Below are positions 5,171 to 58,912 of a stretch of DNA of 64,000 nt, in pieces; the stretch's first letter is position 1, and each line of letters begins with the position of its first letter. The notes beneath the pieces were generated by a model, which searched no databases, had not been told where the DNA came from, and saw nothing but the letters and a program-made list of their open reading frames with translations. The DNA is from Verrucomicrobiia bacterium (GTDB lineage Bacteria > Patescibacteriota > Saccharimonadia > Saccharimonadales > JAGQNK01). Made by a program: the position numbers and the translations under genes. Where the stretch lies: positions 1,047 through 65,046 of the forward strand of contig DATHJY010000007.1 in NCBI GenBank assembly GCA_035489575.1. The letters run 5' to 3'.

Positions 5171-8100
5171 ATGGGAAGCCGCTTGCCCGAAGCTTCCGAT
5201 GATAGTGAAAGAGGTATAGCATATCTGGCGGTTGATGATGTTATACCCGACATGACTTCGGGAGCAATCGAAGTCCCTTTTGCCACTGAGTTCTTCTTGG
5301 AACTGAGCGATGTAGATTCTAATGGCCACGGCTCGGATGATTATGACCCTTATGACGAAACACTTGCTGTCGGGCGTGGACACCGTGAGCTGCCTACCAA
5401 CAGGGATACTGAGTGGGATGACGGAATATCACTTGATAGTCTCCGGCAATTCCGCCAAACAATGGGGTACGACGCCATACCCCAACCCCAGCCCAAACTG
5501 AAACACGATCCAGTAGAGATGCCCGACGAGGAAGAAACAGAGGAAGAAGAGTTATCTGAATTTTTTATTCGTGACCTTCTGGCCAGCGTCGAGCTGCAAA
5601 ACGCCAGGACAGCCCCAAATACCGACATCCCACCCGCTCTTCAGGTAAGCACTGGCGAGCAAACGCTCTCTTATTGGGTTAAAGACCAAAACCCAGGCGA
5701 CCTAACCACAGAAGTCCTGGGAGAGCTATCACTTATTACGATCAGTGCCGTCAAAGATATGCTGGGCATAGCCAGTCATGCCAGGACAAAAACAGCTGAA
5801 TGGCTTATTGAAAATGGTCGCATCCCCAAACCAATTGGTATCGTGCCTTATGGTGACAAAAAACAAGGGCTGCCTGTCTGGAGCAAGCAGCAAATACTTA
5901 TCCCGCACGAAAAAACCATTCCCCAAGAAACTCCGAAAACAGAAAACGAGGCATGGCGGGCCCAGGCTGCCTGTCTGGGTTCTAGCGCCACAGAGTATTT
6001 CTTTGCGGAAAGAGGCGAAAACCAAGAGCCGGCCAAGAGTGTTTGCAGAGGATGTAGTGCACGCCAGGCTTGCCTAGAGTCGGCCCTTGCGCACAAGGAA
6101 AAGCATGGCATATGGGGTGGGACCAACGAACGAGAGCGTCGAGTAATCCGGAGAAGACGGAGCCTAATTGCCAAAAGAGCTGCAGCCGATGGAACGCTCG
6201 ACGGCCTGGACGATCACGACGAGCTCACCCTCAGAGGTCCGCTCGCCCCCGAAGTTCAGGCACTCGTAGACCAGAATCCCGCCCTCGAATCTATTGCTAT
6301 CAGTTTTGAATCGGCCGACCTGGAGGTTCGTGACGATCAGATCCAGGGAGTGCACGCGGTAGAGCAAGCAATAGAATCTGGCAAAGAGCGAGTGTTATAC
6401 CAAATGTATCCTGGTGGCGGCAAGACAAATATGGCGGCAATCATGGCCGACCGTTGGCTGAGCGAAAACCCCGAGAAGCGGGTGCTGTATTTGTGCCATG
6501 ACACACGCTTGCTCAGCCAAGCCCGCGCCCGATTCAAACACATCCTCGGGGACGAAGAGTACACCTATGGCACTTTTACTGGCGAAGAAAAGGACTGGGA
6601 CGATCCCACCTTTATGTTTGCGTCGTTCCAGACAATGCAACAGCAAAACTGGCAAGAATACTTTGCAGACCAAGAGTTCGACCTGGTCATAGTGGACGAA
6701 AGCCATCATTCCAAGGCAGCCACCTACGAAGCTGTGCTGGACCACTTTTTGCCACGCGCCATCAACAGCATAGCTATGAGTGGCACCATCAAGCGTCACG
6801 ACATGAGAGACATCCAAGAAATCTGGGGAGCACCCGTATACTCCAAGACATTTGCCGAAGCCATGGACGAGAAAAGACTGGTATGGCCCGAGTACATCGT
6901 CATGGAGGATCCCGATGAAGAAGAGACCTTTTTGACCGAAGGGATTGACCCCACCAAGCTCAATAGGCGAATCTTTATAGAAGCACGCGATAAGAAAATA
7001 GTTGCTGCCGCCCGCGAGGAAGTCAGAGCGTACGAGCTCAGACACGGCGTGAAGGCAAAGCCGCTGATATTTGATACAACCATTGCCCATGCCGACGTTA
7101 TCGCCCGGCTCTGGTCCGAGGCCGAAGCAGCAGAAAACGGCCAGACAGATATCACCGCCAACGCCGCCCGCACTCTCCACACACGCAGCAAGAACACCCT
7201 AGAAGCGTTCAGGAATAACGAGTTCCCTACGCTGGTTACAGTAAACATGCTGAACGAAGGTATCGACATAACAGACGTAAATGTCATCATTTTCTTGGCC
7301 GCTACCGATTCGGAGCCAAAATATATCCAGCAATTGGCGCGGGGCCTTCGCAAGAAAGCCGGCAAGCCATCGTGTTTAGTCCTGGATTTCCCTAATAACT
7401 GGGGGCATATCATGATGGGTAATCGAGCCGTCAAAGAGATCAAGGCCGGCCGCACACCTGCAACCCAATCAAAACAATGGGCCCAGACCGCCCTCCAGCC
7501 ACGAATGGTGCACCTGGATAATATCTTGTTTACTTTCCAGGCAACACGTGTGGACTTTGTGCAAAGAGTCAAAGAACTAGACAGAGACCCAATGTTACCC
7601 GATGCCATGAGTGTCAAGAAATATGCACGGGATCGCAGCCGCGACTTCAGAACAGTGGTCAGGTATATGCGAATTCTACACATGATCCCCCTCAGCCTAC
7701 CCAATCGCTACGGAGCATACTGGCTGCCGGTAGAGTACCAGCAAGAGCTAGATGCCCAGGCCGGGCTAGCCATTGAGTTTTTCAAACCAGGAGAAATACG
7801 GCTGCCCAAGGCCCTCAAGCAGCTTGGCGTAGGCCAAACAACCGTGGACAAGGCACTGAATGACGGCGACATACGTTTGCCCACGCGAAACTTTGATGAC
7901 GGCGGACCACCCGGACTGGCCGTAGATGAAGCCACCCTGGCGCTACTAGAAGCCAACCCCCGTGTCCAAAAGTACAAAGAGGTAGCTGCCGACGCCAACT
8001 CTCCTCTGGGCGAAGACGAGGAGAGCGTCTACGGCGCCGCACTATCCCTGAACGTGTCCAAGGAAGTTTTCATACACGCGCTTCAGATAGAACTTGGGAT

Positions 8101-13904: not shown

Positions 13905-13976
13905 ACCTCTATGGTACCACGCCTCATAACTCAACAGCCCATCCCATATTCATCACCCTTTCCAAACCGCTCTCTC

Positions 13977-14023
13977 GCTCATTTCAGGGTCGAACCCTGA
14001 AACAGGGTTCGACCCTGAAATGA
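13977..14023. repeat. REP-like palindromic element (copy 1)
   Basis: CTCATTTCAGGGTCGAACCCTG, AAA, then CAGGGTTCGACCCTGAAATGAG: a perfect 22-bp inverted repeat. Related copies occur at 58734-58797. Confidence 0.8.
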
Positions 14024-14057
14024 GGACTCTGGATGAGGATCTCGCATAATATGGGTA

Positions 14058-15485: not shown

Positions 15486-15638
15486 CGGCCACTGACCCCG
15501 CAAGTCGACAGGACTGGACATAGGTTCAGGACACTGCTGGCTGCTGCCCGTGCTCCCCCTTTGTCCAGTTCCTGTCTGCTTGTTTTTCTTTTACGCCCCT
15601 CTGGGCTATTTTTTATACTATGCCCAGATGAAAGCGGG

Positions 15639-16817: not shown

Positions 16818-16979
16818 CCGTAGCCCTCATGGGCCAAGCAGCAGGGCTGGACGAAGGCTCAGGATGTTGCTGGCTGATGCCGGTATCTCCCCCTTTGTCC
16901 AGTTCCTGTCTGCTTGTTTTACTTTTTATGCCACGCCCCTGTGGGCTTTTTTTATACCACCGCATAAGAAGGGGCAGGA

Positions 16980-27159: not shown

Positions 27160-28230
27160 TTAGAAATTGGCCAGCGCAATAAAAGTGATGGTCGTAGCAT
27201 AGATACCAGCACTTTGCTGAGCACTGACGTTGGCAACATAACTAACAGTAAATTTGCGGTTGTCGGTCGTAGTGGTCGAGGTTACGACGTTGTCTGCCTG
27301 CGTAAACCTATACTGATTTGGCGTGTTGTACTCCGGCGTTGGCGCCGACACCCCAGGTCCTACCGGCTCGGCGCCAATACTGGGATTGGTGTTTGCTCGC
27401 AGGTTCAGCCCAAACTGGCTGTTGCCTGGGCTGGACGGTGCCTGCACGGCGAGTGACGGGATAAAATTGTTACCAGATGTCAGGGTAGTTCCCGCCAGAG
27501 CAATACTAAACCCAAACGAGGCATTGGTGGCCACCACCATCTCGGACGAAGCAAAGCGCGCTTGCGTGCGTGAAAATTCACCAAAATCTATAAAAAAGCT
27601 GGTAGCCGTAGAGCAATCAAAGGCAGTAACAGTCACCGACGCGCAAAACCGCAGGTAGGGCGGGACCTCTGCCGACACGTCAAACATATCATTCATAACG
27701 AACACCACTCCACCTTCTTCTAGAGCGGTCCCCGTGCCGTCGCTACTGCCAAAAGTTTGCAGGCGAACATAGTAGCTTCCCTCTGCGTCAGGATTGGTAA
27801 TGTTATTAAAATGGTACTCAGATACCGCGTTAGCCGGCGTGGGCGTAACAGGCCCCCGATTGATCACCAATTTGTTAGGCGTGGTAGCTGCCCCGTTTAT
27901 GTTAAAGCCCGTCAGCCCTGCCTGCGTAAAAAGTACCGCGTTGTCCACGTCCAAACCGGTTGGTACTGTGCAAGGCAAGGCAGTTAGTGGACTGTTAGAA
28001 CAAAATTCAAATACCACCGACCCTACCGGGTTACTCAGATCGTTGTATGTAAACCCAAACTTATGGATAGCCACCGAGCTAACAGTAGAGTCAGAGATCA
28101 TGTCATAACGCTCGGACATCTGCAAAATCTGCGCATGCCCTGTTACCGGCACCAAGAAAGTGCACGCGTAACCAATGGCTACCACCATGTAATGCCAAGC
28201 CTTACGCCTGTCCTTATATAGAAACCGCAT
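27160..28230 (-). CDS. secreted surface protein, paralog family member 1
   Basis: Shares FCSNSP...C-x-PTG-x-D, QFG-x-N/C and the C-terminal YATTITFIALANF pattern with 28249, 30120 and 31556. Confidence 0.6.
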   Translation of the reverse strand: MRFLYKDRRKAWHYMVVAIGYACTFLVPVTGHAQILQMSERYDMISDSTVSSVAIHKFGFTYNDLSNPVGSVVFEFCSNSPLTALPCTVPTGLDVDNAVLFTQAGLTGFNINGAATTPNKLVINRGPVTPTPANAVSEYHFNNITNPDAEGSYYVRLQTFGSSDGTGTALEEGGVVFVMNDMFDVSAEVPPYLRFCASVTVTAFDCSTATSFFIDFGEFSRTQARFASSEMVVATNASFGFSIALAGTTLTSGNNFIPSLAVQAPSSPGNSQFGLNLRANTNPSIGAEPVGPGVSAPTPEYNTPNQYRFTQADNVVTSTTTTDNRKFTVSYVANVSAQQSAGIYATTITFIALANF

Positions 28231-28248: not shown

Positions 28249-29526
28249 CTAGTAGGTGCCGGTGGCGACAAATGTCAGTGTCGTCGTATAGATACCGGCC
28301 TCGGTAGTGTTACTGATGTTGCCGATGAACACCATGGTACCTGTAGAGTAGTCCCCCGCTATCTTACTGGCAATGTCGTCGCCGTAGGTAGAGGTCGTAC
28401 CGGAGCCGCTCGTGTCATAGGCAAAGTCTGTAGTGCCCGCACCGCCAGTCGTACCCGTGCCTGCGCTTTGGGTAGTGCCCGTGCAGTCGGCCGGGTTACT
28501 GCCTACTGAATCGCCGTCGTAAACAGGGTCTGCAGTTAGACCGCTACCTGCGGATTGGTAGGTACAGAATCCAAACTGCTCAGTAGTAGCGGCGCTAGCC
28601 ACAGGCGTACCACCAATAGCGTCTATGGTGTTACTGCCACTCGTGAGCGTCACCCCCTTCAGGCGAATCACCGCACCCCCGGACGCGTTAGTCGTTATGG
28701 AGTATTTGGCACTTTTATCTACATAGGGGCCAGTTGGATCAAGCACACCATTGGTATCCCCTAGCGTGACCGTAGTGCCGGACTTGGTCGTACAGTTGTT
28801 GCCGACACCAGTCGTGTAGACACAGAAGAACAAGCGTTCCTGCACCTTGGAGGTCACGACAATCTGTGCAGCAGTACTGAGTGCTATACCACCGGCGTCT
28901 ATCACAGGAGGCTCGGCACCAGGATTATTGACGTTACCTGGTCCAGGGGTAGCAGAATCGTAGTTTTCGGCCCCTGCAGCCGTAGTAAAGGTGATGATAC
29001 GTGCATAAAAAGTGGTGTTCGAGTTGGTTGGGTTAGTTACGCCGTCACTAACGGCGCCAGTTCCCAGCGTAAACACCTGGGGAGCAGCCGCACCAGGGTT
29101 GTAGGGAGTTACGGCATTTGTGAATACCAGCGTGTTAGCGTCACTGTCACCAGTATCTTTCGTGAAACCCGTCAGACCAGACGAAATGTTTATGGCCAGG
29201 TTAGTAATATTCAGGTCAAAACCCGTAGGAGCAGTACAACTGTCGCCAATAATAGGGGTGTTAGAACAAAAATCTACTACCACACCAGAGATATCCTGAG
29301 CATCGGTGGCAACGTTAAAGCTAACTTCATAAGTAACGTCTTGGCCGGCTGCGGCAGAACCAGTAGCCGAGCTGCTCATGGTAATCTTGCGTGATGTTAT
29401 GGAGCCGTAGGCTTCAGCTTTTTGCGGTCTCAGCAAAGGCAGTATGCTCGCAACAACGAGTACACTTGCTATTACCAAAGTGCCCGATTTTTTCACCCTC
29501 GCGAACACTGTTTTCTCCCCTGTCAT
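28249..29526 (-). CDS. secreted surface protein, paralog family member 2
   Basis: 425 aa with a signal peptide, closely similar along its length to 30120-31367. Ends TTEAGIYTTTLTFVATGTY. Confidence 0.65.
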   Translation of the reverse strand: MTGEKTVFARVKKSGTLVIASVLVVASILPLLRPQKAEAYGSITSRKITMSSSATGSAAAGQDVTYEVSFNVATDAQDISGVVVDFCSNTPIIGDSCTAPTGFDLNITNLAINISSGLTGFTKDTGDSDANTLVFTNAVTPYNPGAAAPQVFTLGTGAVSDGVTNPTNSNTTFYARIITFTTAAGAENYDSATPGPGNVNNPGAEPPVIDAGGIALSTAAQIVVTSKVQERLFFCVYTTGVGNNCTTKSGTTVTLGDTNGVLDPTGPYVDKSAKYSITTNASGGAVIRLKGVTLTSGSNTIDAIGGTPVASAATTEQFGFCTYQSAGSGLTADPVYDGDSVGSNPADCTGTTQSAGTGTTGGAGTTDFAYDTSGSGTTSTYGDDIASKIAGDYSTGTMVFIGNISNTTEAGIYTTTLTFVATGTY

Positions 29527-30119: not shown

Positions 30120-31367
30120 TTAGTAAGTACCGGTGGCAATAAAGGTCAGTACGGTCGTGTATATGCCGGCTTCGGTAGTGTTGGCGATGTTAGCCGCCAG
30201 GACGATGACGCCGGTCGAGAAGTCGCCGGCAGGCTTGCTGGCAAAGGGGTCGCCGTAGGTAGACATAGTTCCGTCGGTACCGTTGGTGTCGAAGGCGAAT
30301 TGGGCTGTACCGACACCACCAGTAGAGGCCGTACCGGCCGTTTGGGTCGTGCTACTGCAAGGAGCAGAGTCATATGGAGTCGTAGCGGTTAGTCCGGCTG
30401 CGCCGCCACCCGCATCGCGGTAGGTACAGAATCCGAACTGCTCGGTATTTGCAGCACTACTGGCTGCAGCTGCGCCGAACGGTGCGATGTCGAATGACCC
30501 GGTCTTGAGCGTGTCGCCCTTTATACGTATGGCAGCACCCTGCGAAGCATTGGTAGCTACATTATATTTAGTCGTCTTATCAACATATGGTCCGGCAGTA
30601 TCTAGCACGCCGTTGGTATCACCCAAGATGACCGCCGTGCCACTCACCGTACAGTTGGCGTAGTTAACAGCAGAAGTATAGACGCAGAAGGTCAGTTTTT
30701 CCTGCACCTTAGAGGTTACCGTGATCTGGGCAGCCGTACTCATGGCGATACCACCAGCATCTACCACAGGTGGCTCGGCACCAGGGTTGTTGACGTTGCC
30801 TGGTCCGGCAGTGGCAGAGTCGTAGTTGTCAGCACCAGCAGTAGTTGTAAAGGTCAGGATACGTGCATAAAAGGTGGTGTTGGCATTCTCTGGGTTGTCT
30901 ATGCCGTCGTTAACAGCTGCTGTTCCAAGCGTAAAGGTAGCACTGTCGTTGGCCGTTGCAGACCAAGGTGACGAGGCGTTTAGTACCAAGGTGTTAGCGT
31001 CACTCTCGCCCGTGTCTTTTGCAAATGACGTCAGACCGGCATTGATAGTGACTGCCAAGTTGGCGGCATCAATATCAAACCCGGTCGGGGGCGTACAAGC
31101 CTCGCCAACGATAGGTGAGTTAGCGCAAAAATCTACCACCAGGCCGTTTAGGGTCGAGGTAGTGGCAACGTCAAAGTCAACTTCATAGGTAACATCCTGA
31201 CCGGCAGTGAGGGTACCATTGGCCGAACTACTCATAGTAATTTTGCGGAGTCCAATCAGTCCATACGCGTGGGCGTCTTGGGTAAAAATTGGAACAGCGC
31301 TAGCCAGAATCAAGAGAGCAGCCGCAGCAAGAGCTTTAGGCCGTTTTAGCTTGTGTGCTAAAACCAT
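30120..31367 (-). CDS. secreted surface protein, paralog family member 3
   Basis: 415 aa with a signal peptide. ITMSSSANGTLTAGQDVTYEVDFDV...FCANSPIVGEACTPPTGFD; ends TTEAGIYTTVLTFIATGTY. Confidence 0.65.
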   Translation of the reverse strand: MVLAHKLKRPKALAAAALLILASAVPIFTQDAHAYGLIGLRKITMSSSANGTLTAGQDVTYEVDFDVATTSTLNGLVVDFCANSPIVGEACTPPTGFDIDAANLAVTINAGLTSFAKDTGESDANTLVLNASSPWSATANDSATFTLGTAAVNDGIDNPENANTTFYARILTFTTTAGADNYDSATAGPGNVNNPGAEPPVVDAGGIAMSTAAQITVTSKVQEKLTFCVYTSAVNYANCTVSGTAVILGDTNGVLDTAGPYVDKTTKYNVATNASQGAAIRIKGDTLKTGSFDIAPFGAAAASSAANTEQFGFCTYRDAGGGAAGLTATTPYDSAPCSSTTQTAGTASTGGVGTAQFAFDTNGTDGTMSTYGDPFASKPAGDFSTGVIVLAANIANTTEAGIYTTVLTFIATGTY

Positions 31368-31555: not shown

Positions 31556-32335
31556 CTAGTAGGTAGCCGTGGCGACTAGCACGTGGTTGAAGTTGTACTG
31601 GCCCGATGTCGTGTCGTCGTCGATATTAAATATATAAGACAGAGTATATATAGTCACGCTGGTGCTTTTGGGTGACTGCGCAACGATATCACCCTTTATA
31701 TACTTAAAAGAATTAGCCACGTCGTAGCCCGTAGCTGCCACACCGAACGAGAAGGTATTGTCTGGAACCTGCTGAGGCACCGCCCCAAAGGTAGCAGGAG
31801 CAGTGTTAGCCACCAGATTCATGCCAAACTGCTCAGTGCCTACCGACGAGGCAGCAGGAGTGACCATGGGGTCTATCTGCTCGGCAGGAAAGGTTAGGTT
31901 AGTGGGCGGATCAGACTCAGTAGTTACCACATATCCGTTGGCCTGCCAGGCGCGTATATAAAAGTTGCCGTTGGCTGTTTTGGTCTGCCCCACATCTAGA
32001 TAATCTAGGTCTACATTGTTGCCGGTTACTACAAACTCCAGGTACGGCTCGTCCGTGGTATTAAAACCAGCATAGGCCTGGTAGTTCAGGCTAGACGTAT
32101 TGCCCACTCCTAAATCGCCTAATGTGGCCTGAGCTTTATACTGGCCAGACTGCAAGTCTTGTTCGCTGCCGGTGCTAAATATTGTTTGATCTACTTTGTA
32201 ATTACTAGAGGACGAGGACTGGGCAGCGACAGGTACCGGCACCCATAGCAGACTTGCCAGCAGCATAGTCCAAAGACGCTTTATTTTCCTAAGAGCCTGT
32301 TCCAGATCTCGCTTTTGATGCCAAAAGTGATCCAT
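31556..32335 (-). CDS. secreted surface protein, divergent paralog family member 4
   Basis: Start taken at MDHFWHQK...RKIKRLWTMLLASLLWVPVPVAAQ (signal). Contains GTEQFGMNLVANT and ends VLVATATY. The upstream part of the track ORF overlaps a hairpin repeat. Confidence 0.55.
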   Translation of the reverse strand: MDHFWHQKRDLEQALRKIKRLWTMLLASLLWVPVPVAAQSSSSSNYKVDQTIFSTGSEQDLQSGQYKAQATLGDLGVGNTSSLNYQAYAGFNTTDEPYLEFVVTGNNVDLDYLDVGQTKTANGNFYIRAWQANGYVVTTESDPPTNLTFPAEQIDPMVTPAASSVGTEQFGMNLVANTAPATFGAVPQQVPDNTFSFGVAATGYDVANSFKYIKGDIVAQSPKSTSVTIYTLSYIFNIDDDTTSGQYNFNHVLVATATY

Positions 32336-32342
32336 TTCGAGT

Positions 32343-32407
32343 GACAATTCGTTCTGGGTTTTGAACCGTACCCATAGGTACGGCTCGGAAGCCAAGGCGA
32401 ATTGACG
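32343..32407. repeat. hairpin (CCGTACC-core family)
   Basis: GAACCGTACCCATAGGTACGGCTCGG core (reverse orientation relative to the 29.8 kb and 40.8 kb copies), with CAATTCG/CGAATTG outer pairing. Confidence 0.5.
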
Positions 32408-32563
32408 CCGGAAGGGGCGGTTTTGGCGCGAAATTGGAGATCTGGAATAGGCTCGAACCCTCATGTCATGAATATTTTGTCCTACTTTACACCTTTTCGC
32501 AATCTGTTTATGCTTCACGGCCCGTGGTATCATAAACGTAAAGAGATCAACGAAAGTTTAGGC

Positions 32564-33556
32564 ATGGAAGAACCGGTACAAGACCCGAATGAGGTAAATT
32601 CGCTGGAAGGCCCTGCGGATGGCGACTCGGCTGGCGGCAGCGAGCCTGCTTCTTTGGGTGCCGAGCCCAAGCCTGACGCAGCTGCCCCCAAACCTGAAAA
32701 ACCCAAAAAAACAGGCTCGTTACTACAACGCCTAGTCAGCCACATCAACATTTATCTGTTGCTGTTTATGCTGATTATTATCATTGCCGCAGTCGTGGTG
32801 TTCGTGGGCATGCAGCGCAACAAAAAAGCACTAGAAACACCAACCATTGCCACCCAAGAGCTTACCCAGGAAGCCCTAGACACCATAAGCAACAGCGAGA
32901 CAAAAGTAGGCGACCCCAAACAAACACTGTCCATAGAATCCAACGCCATCTTTTCTGGCAAAGTACTCATCCGCGACAGCTTGGACGTGGCTGGTACCAT
33001 CAAAGTTGGCGGTGCCCTGAGCCTGCCAGGCCTGACCGTAGCCGGTACCAGCAACTTTGACCAGTTGCAGGCCAACAAGCTCTCCATAGCCGGCGACACC
33101 AATGTGCAAGGCACCCTGACCGTTCAGAAGAACGTGGCCGTCAGTGGCGGTGCAACTTTTGGCGGACCTATCTCGGCACCGCAGATCACTGCTCAGAGCC
33201 TGCAGCTTAACAGCGATCTATCCCTCATCAGACACATCGACGCCGGCGGACCCACACCCGGACGCACCAATGGTACCGCCCTGGGCAACGGTGGCACCTC
33301 ATCCATCAGCGGCACCGACACGGCCGGAACACTCACCGTTAATACTGGTGGGGCACCCGGTGCGGGCTGCTTTGCAACCGTTACCTTTGCCGTCAAATTC
33401 AATTCGACGCCCCACATCATCATTACGCCCGTAGGCTCTGCGGCTGCCGGACTCAACTACTACATCAACCGCAGTACTACCGACTTCTCAGTATGCACCA
33501 CCAACCCCGCACCAGCCGGGCAAAACTTTGCCATTGACTATATCGCCATCGACTAA
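32564..33556 (+). CDS. membrane-anchored protein with beta-helix-like repeats
   Basis: Start at MEEPVQDP. One TM helix (INIYLLLFMLIIIIAAVVVFVGM), then repetitive V/L-x-G-x-L/T segments. Confidence 0.55.
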   Translation: MEEPVQDPNEVNSLEGPADGDSAGGSEPASLGAEPKPDAAAPKPEKPKKTGSLLQRLVSHINIYLLLFMLIIIIAAVVVFVGMQRNKKALETPTIATQELTQEALDTISNSETKVGDPKQTLSIESNAIFSGKVLIRDSLDVAGTIKVGGALSLPGLTVAGTSNFDQLQANKLSIAGDTNVQGTLTVQKNVAVSGGATFGGPISAPQITAQSLQLNSDLSLIRHIDAGGPTPGRTNGTALGNGGTSSISGTDTAGTLTVNTGGAPGAGCFATVTFAVKFNSTPHIIITPVGSAAAGLNYYINRSTTDFSVCTTNPAPAGQNFAIDYIAID

Positions 33557-33927
33557 CTGAGTCCCGTCCCAATCCACGCCACAGCTATCGCATCGGGCAC
33601 AATAGACCATACCACCAGTCGCCCCAGCTCAATCTGCGCGGCCTCATGCTCTTGAGCATCTATATAAGAGTCAACAAATTCGATGGGATCACCCTCATCA
33701 AAGTTATCACCACCAATTTTCTGTCCTCCGGGAACGCCGTCTTCCATGCACTCAACCATTTTCTTGCTAATGGTATCCTGTTGCTCGTTCTCCAGATCCC
33801 GGCATGTCTCGGCCGTAATAATTTTGCCTTCTGCAATCTCGTTCGTATGATTTTCAACCGCCGCACCAAGCCCTACACCAACTGCAAGCGAAAGACCAAA
33901 CCCAGCCACCGCTTCATATGCCCGCAT
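33553..33927 (-). CDS. hypothetical small membrane protein
   Basis: Start at MRAYEAVAGFGLSLAVGVGLGAAV (TM helix); acidic middle region and hydrophobic C-terminus. Confidence 0.45.
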   Translation of the reverse strand: MRAYEAVAGFGLSLAVGVGLGAAVENHTNEIAEGKIITAETCRDLENEQQDTISKKMVECMEDGVPGGQKIGGDNFDEGDPIEFVDSYIDAQEHEAAQIELGRLVVWSIVPDAIAVAWIGTGLS

Positions 33928-34032
33928 GTATCGCTCCTTATATATTACGATACAAAGTATACTAGATTGCACAAAGCTTGTGTTAAAAATAAAACATCGA
34001 TGACATGTAAAGAAGTGCTTACCTCTCCTGCG

Positions 34033-34417
34033 CCAGACAGGCGATTGCAGAAACATGACTGTCCAGCCAGCGAGATACTATCTGGCTCCTGCGGAACTCC
34101 CTACGGTCAAACATCCTCGGACCGCAGGTATCATCTCGCTGGCTAGCCAATCAGTTTCCACAAAGCCTGATCTGGTCGCAGGAGAGGTAAGCCGCACCGC
34201 TAGACCTTGGAGAGCGGACTGTCTTCTTGGGAGTGCTCAGCGTGAGCGGCTTGCGCCTCATACCCTCAGATCAGGCTTTGAAAAACTGATTGAACAAAAT
34301 AACCAAATCTAACCGCGTGGTGAGGACCAGCCCCTTGCGGGCCGACTGAAAGGAGTTCCGGAGGCACCGGTGATTTGGTTATTTTGGGCAGTCCTGTTTT
34401 TTCAACCGCCTGTCTGG
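34033..34417. other. ~385-nt ORF-free nested-helix element (candidate structured RNA or composite palindromic repeat)
   Basis: An outer stem (34033-34064 with 34386-34417) encloses three long hairpins: 34065-34146, 34149-34302 and 34307-34385. Confidence 0.4.
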
Positions 34418-34450
34418 GGGTGTGGGGCACAAGCACTTAAAATAACGAGC

Positions 34451-34744
34451 CTATACGTCTAGGAATACAACCACGCGATCGGCTTTGACGTGCATGATGC
34501 CGCGCTGGATAGCTACTTTTTCTTCGCCCTTGTCGCTGCGCACAATAATATCGCCCGCACTCAGCAACGTCATGAAGTTATGGTGCCGTGGCAAAATATC
34601 AAAAGGCCCCGTGTCATTAGTAGCCGAGATACTGTCAGCAATGCCATCGTAATAAGTTTTGAACGGCGCATACACTTTGACATGCATTTTCCCCTTTGGA
34701 ATTTCCACTTCCTTCTTGGGAATGACCATCTTTTCTTCTTGCAT
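34451..34744 (-). CDS. atpC: F1 ATP synthase epsilon subunit (short, beta-sandwich domain)
   Basis: FDILPRHHNFMTLLSAGDIIV matches the epsilon signature (G-x-F-G-I-L-P-x-H). Lies downstream of atpD. Confidence 0.7.
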   Translation of the reverse strand: MQEEKMVIPKKEVEIPKGKMHVKVYAPFKTYYDGIADSISATNDTGPFDILPRHHNFMTLLSAGDIIVRSDKGEEKVAIQRGIMHVKADRVVVFLDV

Positions 34745-34824
34745 AAGCAGTATTATAAACCAAGCAGCTGCTTGGTGTTGCCGAGTTTATGCCTCCAAAC
34801 TCTGAGCGAGCTAGATCATATCGA

Positions 34825-35090
34825 TTACTTATAAAGTTGAGCGTGAGTTCCGATAGCCACAAAAAGCACATGGTTTTCGCCTTGCAGCAAATAGTGCGCC
34901 CGCCAGTCACCCCCAAAAAAGCAATAGAGCGATGACCCCTCCACTTGCCCAAGAGTGCATGATTATACAAATCGGGATGATGAGGCTCGATTTTAAATAA
35001 TGCAATTGCCTCTTCGAAACGTCTCTTTTACGCCAGTCTTAGATCTTTATACTGCTTATCAAACGACTCATGAAAGGTAGTTGTTATCAT
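34825..35090 (-). pseudogene. RelE/YafQ-family toxin pseudogene (in-frame TAA plus a frameshift at a T6G5 run)
   Basis: MITTTFHESFDKQYKDLRLA*KRRFEEAIALFKIEPHHPDLYNHALLGKWRGHRSIAF, then after a frame change GGDWRAHYLLQGENHVLFVAIGTHAQLYK*. ATGA overlap with the antitoxin stop. Confidence 0.7.
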
Positions 35091-35362
35091 AACGACCTAA
35101 GGTGCTCAAGCGTCTCCTCCACTGTGGTAGTAGTGGTACTATTGCGGCCAGCTTTATAGTCTGCTTCTGCCTCCTTGATGATCTCTTCCAGATAGGGAGT
35201 AGGTTCAAGGCTGGAGGTAAGCCGTACTTCGCCCGTGCGCACGGCTTGCATGGTGGCCGCCAGCATGAGGCTGGTAGTAGACAAACCAACAGAGGCAGCA
35301 AAGTCTGCTATCTGCTGTTTAGTTTTAGCGTCGGTTCTAATAGTTACAGTTGCATTACTCAT
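35087..35362 (-). CDS. RelB/DinJ-family antitoxin (intact)
   Basis: MSNATVTIRTDAKTKQQIADFAASVGLSTTSLMLAATMQAV is RHH/DinJ-like. Start at 35362. Confidence 0.7.
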   Translation of the reverse strand: MSNATVTIRTDAKTKQQIADFAASVGLSTTSLMLAATMQAVRTGEVRLTSSLEPTPYLEEIIKEAEADYKAGRNSTTTTTVEETLEHLRSL

Positions 35363-35372
35363 AATACCTACT

Positions 35373-35401
35373 ACTGTACTGCAAGTGACTGCAGTATGCA
35401 A
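35373..35401 (-). promoter_or_regulatory. promoter with operator-like palindrome for the antitoxin-toxin pair
   Basis: On the minus strand: TTGCAT, 17 nt, TACAGT. The spacer holds the inverted repeat ACTGCA-N6-TGCAGT (35378-35395). Confidence 0.45.
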
Positions 35402-35422
35402 GCTTTTAACTGCAATGTGCAA

Positions 35423-58733: not shown

Positions 58734-58797
58734 TATTTCAGGGTCGCATTTCAGGGTCGAACCCTGTTTCACTATTTCAGGGTTCGACCCTGAAATA
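58734..58797. repeat. REP-like palindromic element (copy 2, with an extra partial unit)
   Basis: CTATTTCAGGGTCG, CATTTCAGGGTCGAACCCTG and CTATTTCAGGGTTCGACCCTGAAAT share the same core as 13977-14023. Confidence 0.8.
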
Positions 58798-58912
58798 TGC
58801 TAGAAGAGGCAGGCTTGCCGGGGTAGCTCTTATGGCTCCCGCGCTGTCGGCTTAACTGAAAGCCATTTGTCTGCAAGACCCGAATCAACTGACGAGCGGT
58901 TAATGCTTTCAT
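58772..58912 (-). pseudogene. HicA-family toxin, 3'-truncated and fused into the REP-like element
   Basis: MKALTARQLIRVLQTNGFQLSRQRGSHKSYPGKPA, then the reading frame runs into the repeat and stops. Confidence 0.6.

Follow-up and report, generated by a model that had tools for sequence, protein, structure and literature searches.

The window, by which we mean the whole 64-kb stretch of DNA that was analysed, carries an atp operon on its minus strand, which the list of open reading frames (ORFs) gives in the order atpF, atpH, atpA, atpG, atpD, a small inserted module, and atpC. Its source was assigned through the atpC product, as nearly all of the best 80 genomic matches came from metagenome-assembled genomes of Saccharibacteria or Saccharimonadales. 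The element described here lies downstream of atpC, as originally predicted, in a 523-nt gap between that gene and a small, membrane-like minus-strand ORF with no Pfam match (33553-33927). A conserved convergent gene of 384 amino acids (32402-33556) follows beyond this ORF. Only 13 nt separate the atpC stop codon from the base of the nearer hairpin of the element (unit R, below), and just past the farther one (unit L) on the minus strand is a promoter-like site, a candidate by its match to the consensus. Saccharibacteria genomes are tiny and densely packed, so 400 nt of non-coding hairpin behind an ATP synthase operon needs explaining.

34451-34744, minus strand: atpC, the last gene of the atp operon (PF02823 in homologues)
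33959-33986, minus strand: promoter-like site TTAACA-16-TAGTAT, from a consensus scan alone, serving ORF 33553-33927

The module inserted between atpD and atpC (34748-35422, minus strand) is toxin-antitoxin-like. Its antitoxin-like ORF (35087-35422) has no Pfam match. The YafQ/ParE-type toxin gene behind it has decayed, with a frameshift and an in-frame stop; once repaired, its sequence matches PF15738 (E 5e-8), and an intact YafQ-type gene occupies the same position in a relative whose atpC is 88% identical.

The gap behind atpC holds a real, non-coding and strongly structured element. The original prediction had described it as about 385 nt long and in the range of large structured RNAs, with an outer stem enclosing three helices in a four-way junction, and all four of the inverted repeats behind that description are present:

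34033-34065 / 34385-34417: outer stem, 33 nt, 85% complementary
34056-34084 / 34125-34153: helix H1
34161-34195 / 34246-34280, plus 34148-34157 / 34283-34292: helix H2
34296-34309 / 34372-34385: helix H3

The arms of all these repeats are unique within the window. Folding of 34025-34425 gave -196.5 kcal/mol on the plus strand (z -9.6) and -193.9 kcal/mol on the minus strand (z -10.3), that is, z about -10 on both, and none of 100 shuffles folded as well. The single ORF inside the element is also the one predicted (34055-34312, 85 amino acids), and it is probably a spurious call made of hairpin arms. A similar case was seen elsewhere, where a 57-amino-acid gene is called in the public record over a hairpin unit (L179, 14065-14238) and is probably again a spurious ORF from hairpin arms.

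The junction itself was not the best fold. The structure is wider than had been thought (34013-34438), with additional pairing of 34017-34032 with 34177-34192 (100% complementary) and of 34249-34285 with 34398-34434. On both strands, the minimum free energy (MFE) fold of 34010-34440 consists of two side-by-side hairpins, L and R, with -221.1 kcal/mol on the plus strand and -222.2 on the minus strand. When the outer stem and H2 were forced, the same segment reached -209.8 and -206.9 kcal/mol, respectively, so that the four-way junction costs 11 kcal/mol (plus) or 15 kcal/mol (minus) relative to two hairpins. The junction fold owes its existence to L and R being inverted copies of each other that have diverged: the left half, aligned to the right half in reverse complement, scored 83, compared with -9 ± 10 for shuffles. 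The parts of the two hairpins are as follows:

34033-34065: left outer arm, pairing alternatively with 34385-34417 (junction) or 34160-34192 (unit L)
34385-34417: right outer arm, pairing alternatively with 34033-34065 (junction) or 34262-34292 (unit R)
34013-34196, minus strand: unit L, a hairpin of ~184 nt that belongs to the unconstrained MFE fold and carries a type-1 module at its apex
34074-34134, minus strand: type-1 apical module of unit L, C-GAGGAUGUUUGA-CC(GUA)GG-GAGUUCCGCAG with its closing stem; core at 34092-34118
34197-34242, no strand: central spacer between the units, equal to the inner part of H2
34243-34438, plus strand: unit R, a hairpin of ~196 nt with a type-2 module at its apex; arms 34249-34285 / 34398-34434
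34306-34378, plus strand: type-2 apical module of unit R, GAGGAC-CAG(hairpin)CUG-AAAGGAGUUCCGGAG; core at 34322-34360

Of the helices listed above, H1 falls within unit L and H3 within unit R. H2 is divided, its 5' arm in L and its 3' arm in R, as is the outer stem, whose left arm belongs to L and whose right arm belongs to R. The central spacer folds weakly by itself (34193-34245, -13.7 kcal/mol plus and -7.3 minus) and had no homologue in the other inverted pairs that were compared.

The two units prefer opposite strands. Unit L reached -118.9 kcal/mol with 8 G-U pairs on the minus strand versus -100.8 kcal/mol with 2 G-U pairs on the plus strand, whereas unit R reached -104.1 kcal/mol with 8 G-U pairs on the plus strand versus -90.0 kcal/mol with 4 on the minus strand. 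The advantage is therefore 18 kcal/mol on minus for L and 14 kcal/mol on plus for R. This mirrored preference argues against a single RNA made from one strand, and it also argues against a strand-biased mutation process acting over two adjacent segments. Most likely, selection has favoured folding of each unit on a single strand, which for L is the strand of atpC and for R the other.

What is conserved in the units is the apex. Read on the better-folding strand, the type-1 module is 5'-C GAGGAYGUUUGA (Pb) GAGUUCCGCAG-3'. Stem Pa closes it, GGA pairs with UCC in a helix of 3 bp, the internal loop is invariant, and Pb is the distal stem. Pb varies in length, from a minimal GC-GNA-GC (2 bp and a triloop) up to 9 bp; the minimal form GCGAAGC is an unusually stable DNA mini-hairpin. 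The second type, GAGGAC-CAG(hairpin)CUG-AAARGAGUUCCG, is common to unit R, where it is also written GAGGAC-CAG(hairpin)CUG-AAAGGAGUUCCG, and two units of one Saccharimonadales contig. Aligned together, these three have 38 invariant columns, and a 19-nt stretch of the unit R module (CCGACTGAAAGGAGTTCCG) is 95% identical to locus L169. Our covariance model R1 found unit L as the top match in the window (61.2 bits, E 1.5e-15) and unit R as a weak second (11.7 bits, E 0.37), with no further pair in the 64 kb. By eye, a kink-turn did not fit the module, as bulge length and flanking pairs are unsuitable, nor did a hammerhead core, as it lacks the CUGA box and the essential A14. A CsrA site or Shine-Dalgarno mimic was set aside on the same by-eye basis, one copy (L146b) having GAGCA for GAGGA with a compensating change, and 5S rRNA loop C, the 23S GTPase-centre RNA and the 16S 3' end had just 6-8-nt words in common with it.

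Related sequences were found both behind atpC and at unrelated loci. A profile search of 80 Saccharibacteria atpC loci returned one related sequence, in L079, directly downstream of atpC; at the H1 tip it has a 33-nt stretch in common with the window. When metagenome contigs were scanned for the exact pattern of 21 specified bases from this stretch, a 27-nt core turned up in 36 contigs, and in 34 of these the core lies at the tip of a long hairpin whose arms are complementary and unrelated to those of other copies. The remaining two matches (L142 and L157) are inside coding sequence and look like unrelated matches. With a relaxed pattern, further copies appeared in which a longer hairpin replaces the tiny central one, in L059, L153, L161 (four copies), L169 and H3 of the window. 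Units adjoin unrelated housekeeping genes, and they can be numerous locally: L161 has four in 12 kb, and the Saccharimonadales contig L169/L179 has four in 21 kb, namely a type-2/type-1 pair, inverted and flanked by pyrG and the gene for a peptidase, together with one single type-1 unit and one single type-2 unit. No transposase, reverse transcriptase or recombinase was present among the annotated neighbours of the copies examined. Outside the short word CAGACAGGCG, which it shares with L079, the window's outer arms are not common to other family members, and no clear direct repeat flanks 34013 or 34438.

A large and homogeneous subfamily (L139-L173) is found on contigs that are Aminicenantes-like by the best matches of a neighbouring protein. 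We refer to these Aminicenantes-type copies as family B and to the Saccharibacteria-type copies as family S. Family B copies are near-identical, ~253-270 nt long and bounded by terminal inverted repeats (GGTTCTCTTCC.../...GGAAGAGAACC), so that the repeat looks like a MITE of about 260 nt; its flanks are A+T-rich, which leaves the borders ambiguous for target-site duplication. Four of these loci (L141, L166, L170 and L172) have a nested insertion of ~170 nt at the same internal point, with different flanks.

Changes among the copies preserve pairing in the module. Across 36 copies, Pa and Pb were 89.6% paired, with double changes in 7 of 11 pairs, and the covariation score was reached by none of 500 shuffles. 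In a set of 15 diverse copies, 11 of 15 pairs showed double changes and both Pb pairs were 100% paired. L146b carries a compensatory change within the 3-bp helix (GAGCA...UUGCG). Outside the module, the arms are wholly different between copies yet complementary, around a conserved tip. Unit L has both features that define the family, the module GAGGAYGUUUGA-(Pb)-GAGUUCCGCAG and a covarying closing stem. The element is best read as an inverted ('<- ->') pair of units of a dispersed hairpin-repeat family. The prediction was to fall if the structure proved to be a stack of ordinary palindromic repeats, each found elsewhere. The region does break down into palindromes that occur independently, although these are not ordinary ones: their apical module is conserved and covaries.

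Known RNA families do not account for the element, and RNase P, tmRNA, SRP and 6S RNA, to which the first description could not match it, gave no match here either. Rfam 15 covariance models at gathering threshold gave no matches in the whole window, and in E-value mode (E up to 10) only chance-level matches (E ≥ 1.5) in 33850-34550. On L079 and 33 related loci, Rfam returned tRNAs or chance-level matches only. BLAST of the element against phage and plasmid collections gave no match, and neither did two pattern scans of viral contigs; a loose pattern gave 55 matches in viral contigs, which we assumed to be chance. Searches of the literature for the core sequence, on either strand and in either alphabet, found unrelated primers only, and topical searches found no description of the element. 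Judged from these sequence comparisons, the family appears to be new, uncatalogued and absent from Rfam.

Strand preference was also seen across the family. We tested it with the core forced unpaired, and the strand with GAGGA...GAGUUCCG folded better in 29 of the 34 other copies (10 of 11 in family S, 19 of 23 in family B), with 69 G-U pairs on the favoured strand of family S versus 35 on the other. On the favoured strand of several copies, the core is followed after 56-58 nt by a tract rich in T, such as TTTTGSTTCTTT. The A-rich mirror on the other side is weaker, with mean maxima of 8.2 (T) and 6.6 (A); T exceeded A in 12 units and fell below it in 5, although this tally is a crude windowed count rather than one taken from detected hairpin bases. 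Together, the strand bias and T tracts support selection at the single-strand level, which RNA and single-stranded DNA would fit alike, and the tracts are suggestive of transcription termination. In the window, the core of L is followed, 95 nt on, by a weak U-rich stretch (TGTTTTATTTTT) that starts about 30-45 nt beyond the base of the unit, and unit R is without a U tract. A scan of 33500-34900 for intrinsic terminators found none, within a search limited to stems of ≤20 bp with loops of 3-8 nt and thus blind to long hairpins. Most single units in the family lie directly behind a co-oriented gene, whereas those of L150 and of L179 at 6.7 kb are antisense to both neighbouring genes.

Pairs also have a fixed geometry. 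Inverted pairs in the window, L146, L161, L169/L179 and, weakly, L153 have the same relative orientation, with their favoured strands pointing outward. From whichever side a transcript enters, it would therefore cross the nearer unit in the weaker orientation and the farther unit in the favoured orientation. Such an arrangement suits a two-way transcript-end module, where the transcripts from the two sides each include both hairpins. The pair of L146 (3950-4460) has a canonical bidirectional terminator at its centre, and its right unit is the GAGCA...UUGCG variant. The same pair is flanked on each side by two or three copies of a TTTCTTTTG box.

Presence of the element behind atpC is patchy. 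In 601 kb of Saccharibacteria atpC loci, model R1 found it only in L079 and L059, which are distant Saccharibacteria carrying it at the orthologous spacer, here ~400 nt long between atpC and a convergent gene orthologous to the window's 384-amino-acid gene. In the closest relatives of the window (atpC 87-88% identical), the spacers are 33-61 nt and have no element, and most other relatives likewise have atpC spacers of 3-100 nt without it. A relative with 81% atpC identity has a 556-nt gap at this spacer. Two histories would account for the pattern, namely insertion more than once at sites of the same kind, or the presence of an old element followed by many losses. The window and L079 have extra similarity at the hairpin base, which, on sequence grounds, slightly favours common descent or a shared subfamily for these two.

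The reading that we prefer, with moderate confidence, is that the inverted pair of hairpin-repeat units has an RNA-level role at transcript ends and has spread between loci. Each unit, a hairpin of ~180-190 nt whose stems are free to vary around a conserved two-helix apex, would act in RNA. A transcript running out of atpC would cross R in its weaker orientation and then form L, after which come the U-rich stretch and then the promoter-like site of the next gene. The pair might thus form transcript ends and insulate in both directions while also protecting 3' ends, with the invariant apical module as a putative docking site for a conserved factor, and the family may spread between loci like a non-autonomous repeat. 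The reading presumes transcription of the element, a part in termination or stabilisation, a binding partner and a mode of spread. Several observations count against it. The antisense single units of L150 and L179 imply that co-transcription with an upstream gene is not general, and with a terminator between the units of L146, flanking transcripts may never reach the favoured orientation. In the window, the U stretch after L is weak, none follows R, and the simple scan for short-stemmed terminators found none. An RNA-specific role also has to reckon with folding that tolerates G-T pairs, which would suit single-stranded DNA equally. As a more tentative extension, the apical module of ~30 nt may be a new class of structured RNA, protein-binding or catalytic, that is found across phyla (Patescibacteria and Acidobacteriota/Aminicenantes) as the payload or mobility signal of hairpin repeats. 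One example would be recognition of the module by a putative system for mobilisation or 3'-end processing that depends on RNA or ssDNA.

The main rival is a DNA-level mobile element, MITE- or REPIN-like, whose hairpins would form in single-stranded DNA, with the apex as the recognition hairpin of a putative transposase or recombinase and any RNA effects as a by-product. We consider this possible but unlikely. The patchy presence among close relatives, the copies at unrelated loci and the consistently inverted pairs all speak for it, as do the near-identical family B copies with terminal inverted repeats and a nested-insertion variant at several flanks; the stability of the minimal Pb as a DNA mini-hairpin also fits. 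However, conservation of the apex and not of the termini is the reverse of MITEs and REPINs, the annotated neighbours include no transposase, reverse transcriptase or recombinase, searches of phage, plasmid and viral collections turned up no copy, and transcription accounts more readily for a U-rich tract on one side only. Returning to an RNA-level role, each unit might instead be a stand-alone sRNA gene with its own promoter and terminator, the module acting as a protein sponge or a target-pairing loop. The antisense units of L150 and L179 would suit such genes, L150 has a TATAAT box ~30 nt upstream of its hairpin on the favoured strand, and U-rich tracts follow hairpins. We nevertheless find this improbable, since the 46-nt centre in the window is G+C-rich without a promoter-like site, most single units are directly behind a co-oriented gene, and the GAGGA to GAGCA change of L146b keeps the pairing while destroying a Shine-Dalgarno-like or GGA-type word.

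The reading first put forward, one structured RNA of ~385-420 nt made from one strand with an outer stem round three helices, now seems very unlikely. Its attractions are the very low fold energy and the 33-nt outer stem, and a transcript crossing the pair would hold both units and could take up the junction as an alternative fold. The region is indeed structured, non-coding and partly conserved with compensatory changes, but a single RNA of this size does not agree with a junction 11-15 kcal/mol less stable than the side-by-side hairpins, the opposite strand preferences of L and R, or homologous units that occur alone without an outer-stem partner. The centres of other pairs are moreover unrelated, one of them holding an ordinary terminator, and no Rfam family matched. 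Least probable by far is an invertible DNA switch, in which a recombinase would flip a 319-bp segment between 33-bp inverted repeats. The repeats are of suitable size, and in L079 the best-conserved module is turned the other way with respect to atpC, but this difference follows from which unit is present. The segment contains no promoter-like site, a non-exhaustive screen of the neighbouring ORFs listed no recombinase, and units exist singly elsewhere.

Several known kinds of element resemble the family in part. Like the ERIC or IRU sequences of Enterobacteriaceae (127-bp imperfect palindromes located in intergenic regions that are transcribed), the units are non-coding, dispersed between genes and present or absent at orthologous sites, with sequence conserved across genera, a long hairpin that folds better on one strand, and variants with internal insertions. 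Unlike ERIC, with which there is no sequence similarity, the conserved part is the apex while stems differ wholly between copies, and the units span two phyla and often form inverted pairs. REP, BIME and REPIN elements, which are mobilised by RAYT transposases, are also short palindromes that occur singly or as inverted pairs with long hairpins, are located where genes end and have a proposed role in stabilising the mRNA upstream. There, however, the REP sequence is a conserved stem with a variable loop, whereas here the stems vary and the loop is conserved, and no GTAG-type 5' signature or RAYT gene was seen within the stretches examined. The Aminicenantes subfamily resembles bacterial MITEs (Correia, BOX, RUP, Nezha and the like) in its terminal inverted repeats, length of ~260 nt, lack of an ORF, near-identical copies and nested insertions. 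The copies of the window and other Saccharibacteria differ from MITEs in sharing no terminal repeats with that subfamily, no clear target-site duplication and no parent insertion sequence was found, and the shared part is central rather than terminal.

Intrinsic (Rho-independent) terminators are similar in their position after the last gene of an operon or between convergent or tandem genes, and in a G+C-rich hairpin base that in many family members is followed by a U-rich tract. The hairpins here are 5-10 times longer and have a conserved 30-nt apical module, and the window copy has no canonical U tract directly after its stem. Large non-coding RNAs (RNase P, tmRNA, 6S, SRP, OLE, GOLLD, ROOL, HEARO and raiA) are comparable in overall size and predicted stability, but the element has no covariance-model match, is multi-copy, shows opposite strand preferences and lacks a conserved multi-helix core. 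Three further systems were rejected. An integron attC site would have R''/R' core sites (GTTRRRY) at the hairpin bases, which are absent; the units are also inverted rather than arrayed, and no Rfam attC match was obtained. A retron msr-msd has an adjacent reverse transcriptase, and the neighbours here are atpC, a small ORF without a Pfam match and the 384-amino-acid gene. The end hairpins of IS200/IS605 elements (PATE or omega-RNA) lie on one strand, and their Rfam models missed the element.

In place of a one-off "large ncRNA" there is now a definable family: it has modules of two types, its pairs have a fixed geometry, it spans phyla, and a covariance model describes it. If the module binds a conserved factor or directs mobility, the family would offer a route to RNA biology or to mobile-element mechanisms in uncultivated lineages. 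If it is merely a selfish hairpin repeat, it would still matter for annotation, as spurious ORFs are called on units, and such repeats might affect assembly.

The window contains other repeats. The outer stem had been thought to share words with "cassette boxes", probably the 40-nt direct repeat CTCCCCCTTTGTCCAGTTCCTGTCTGCTTGTTTTTCTTTT at 15553-15592 and 16887-16926; the overlap came down to the 8-mer CCTGTCTG (8 occurrences in the window, 2.4 expected), and the element has nothing else in common with these boxes. The two copies of the 40-nt repeat are 98% identical and 1334 nt apart, and after each comes a similar promoter-like stretch rich in A+T. A perfect 22-bp palindrome (CTCATTTCAGGGTCGAACCCTG / CAGGGTTCGACCCTGAAATGAG), with copies 44.7 kb apart at 13973-14024 and 58747-58804, is another dispersed palindromic repeat of this genome and is unrelated to the units described above. 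Two paralogous minus-strand genes for secreted or surface proteins of ~420 amino acids (28249-29526 and 30120-31367) have long stretches of 72-77% DNA identity, with further related genes beside them (27160-28230 and 31556-32533). Finally, the word GGCTGCCTGTCTGG occurs twice, 97 nt apart, at 5871-5978, in a coding region just upstream of what is by eye a WhiB-like cysteine motif.
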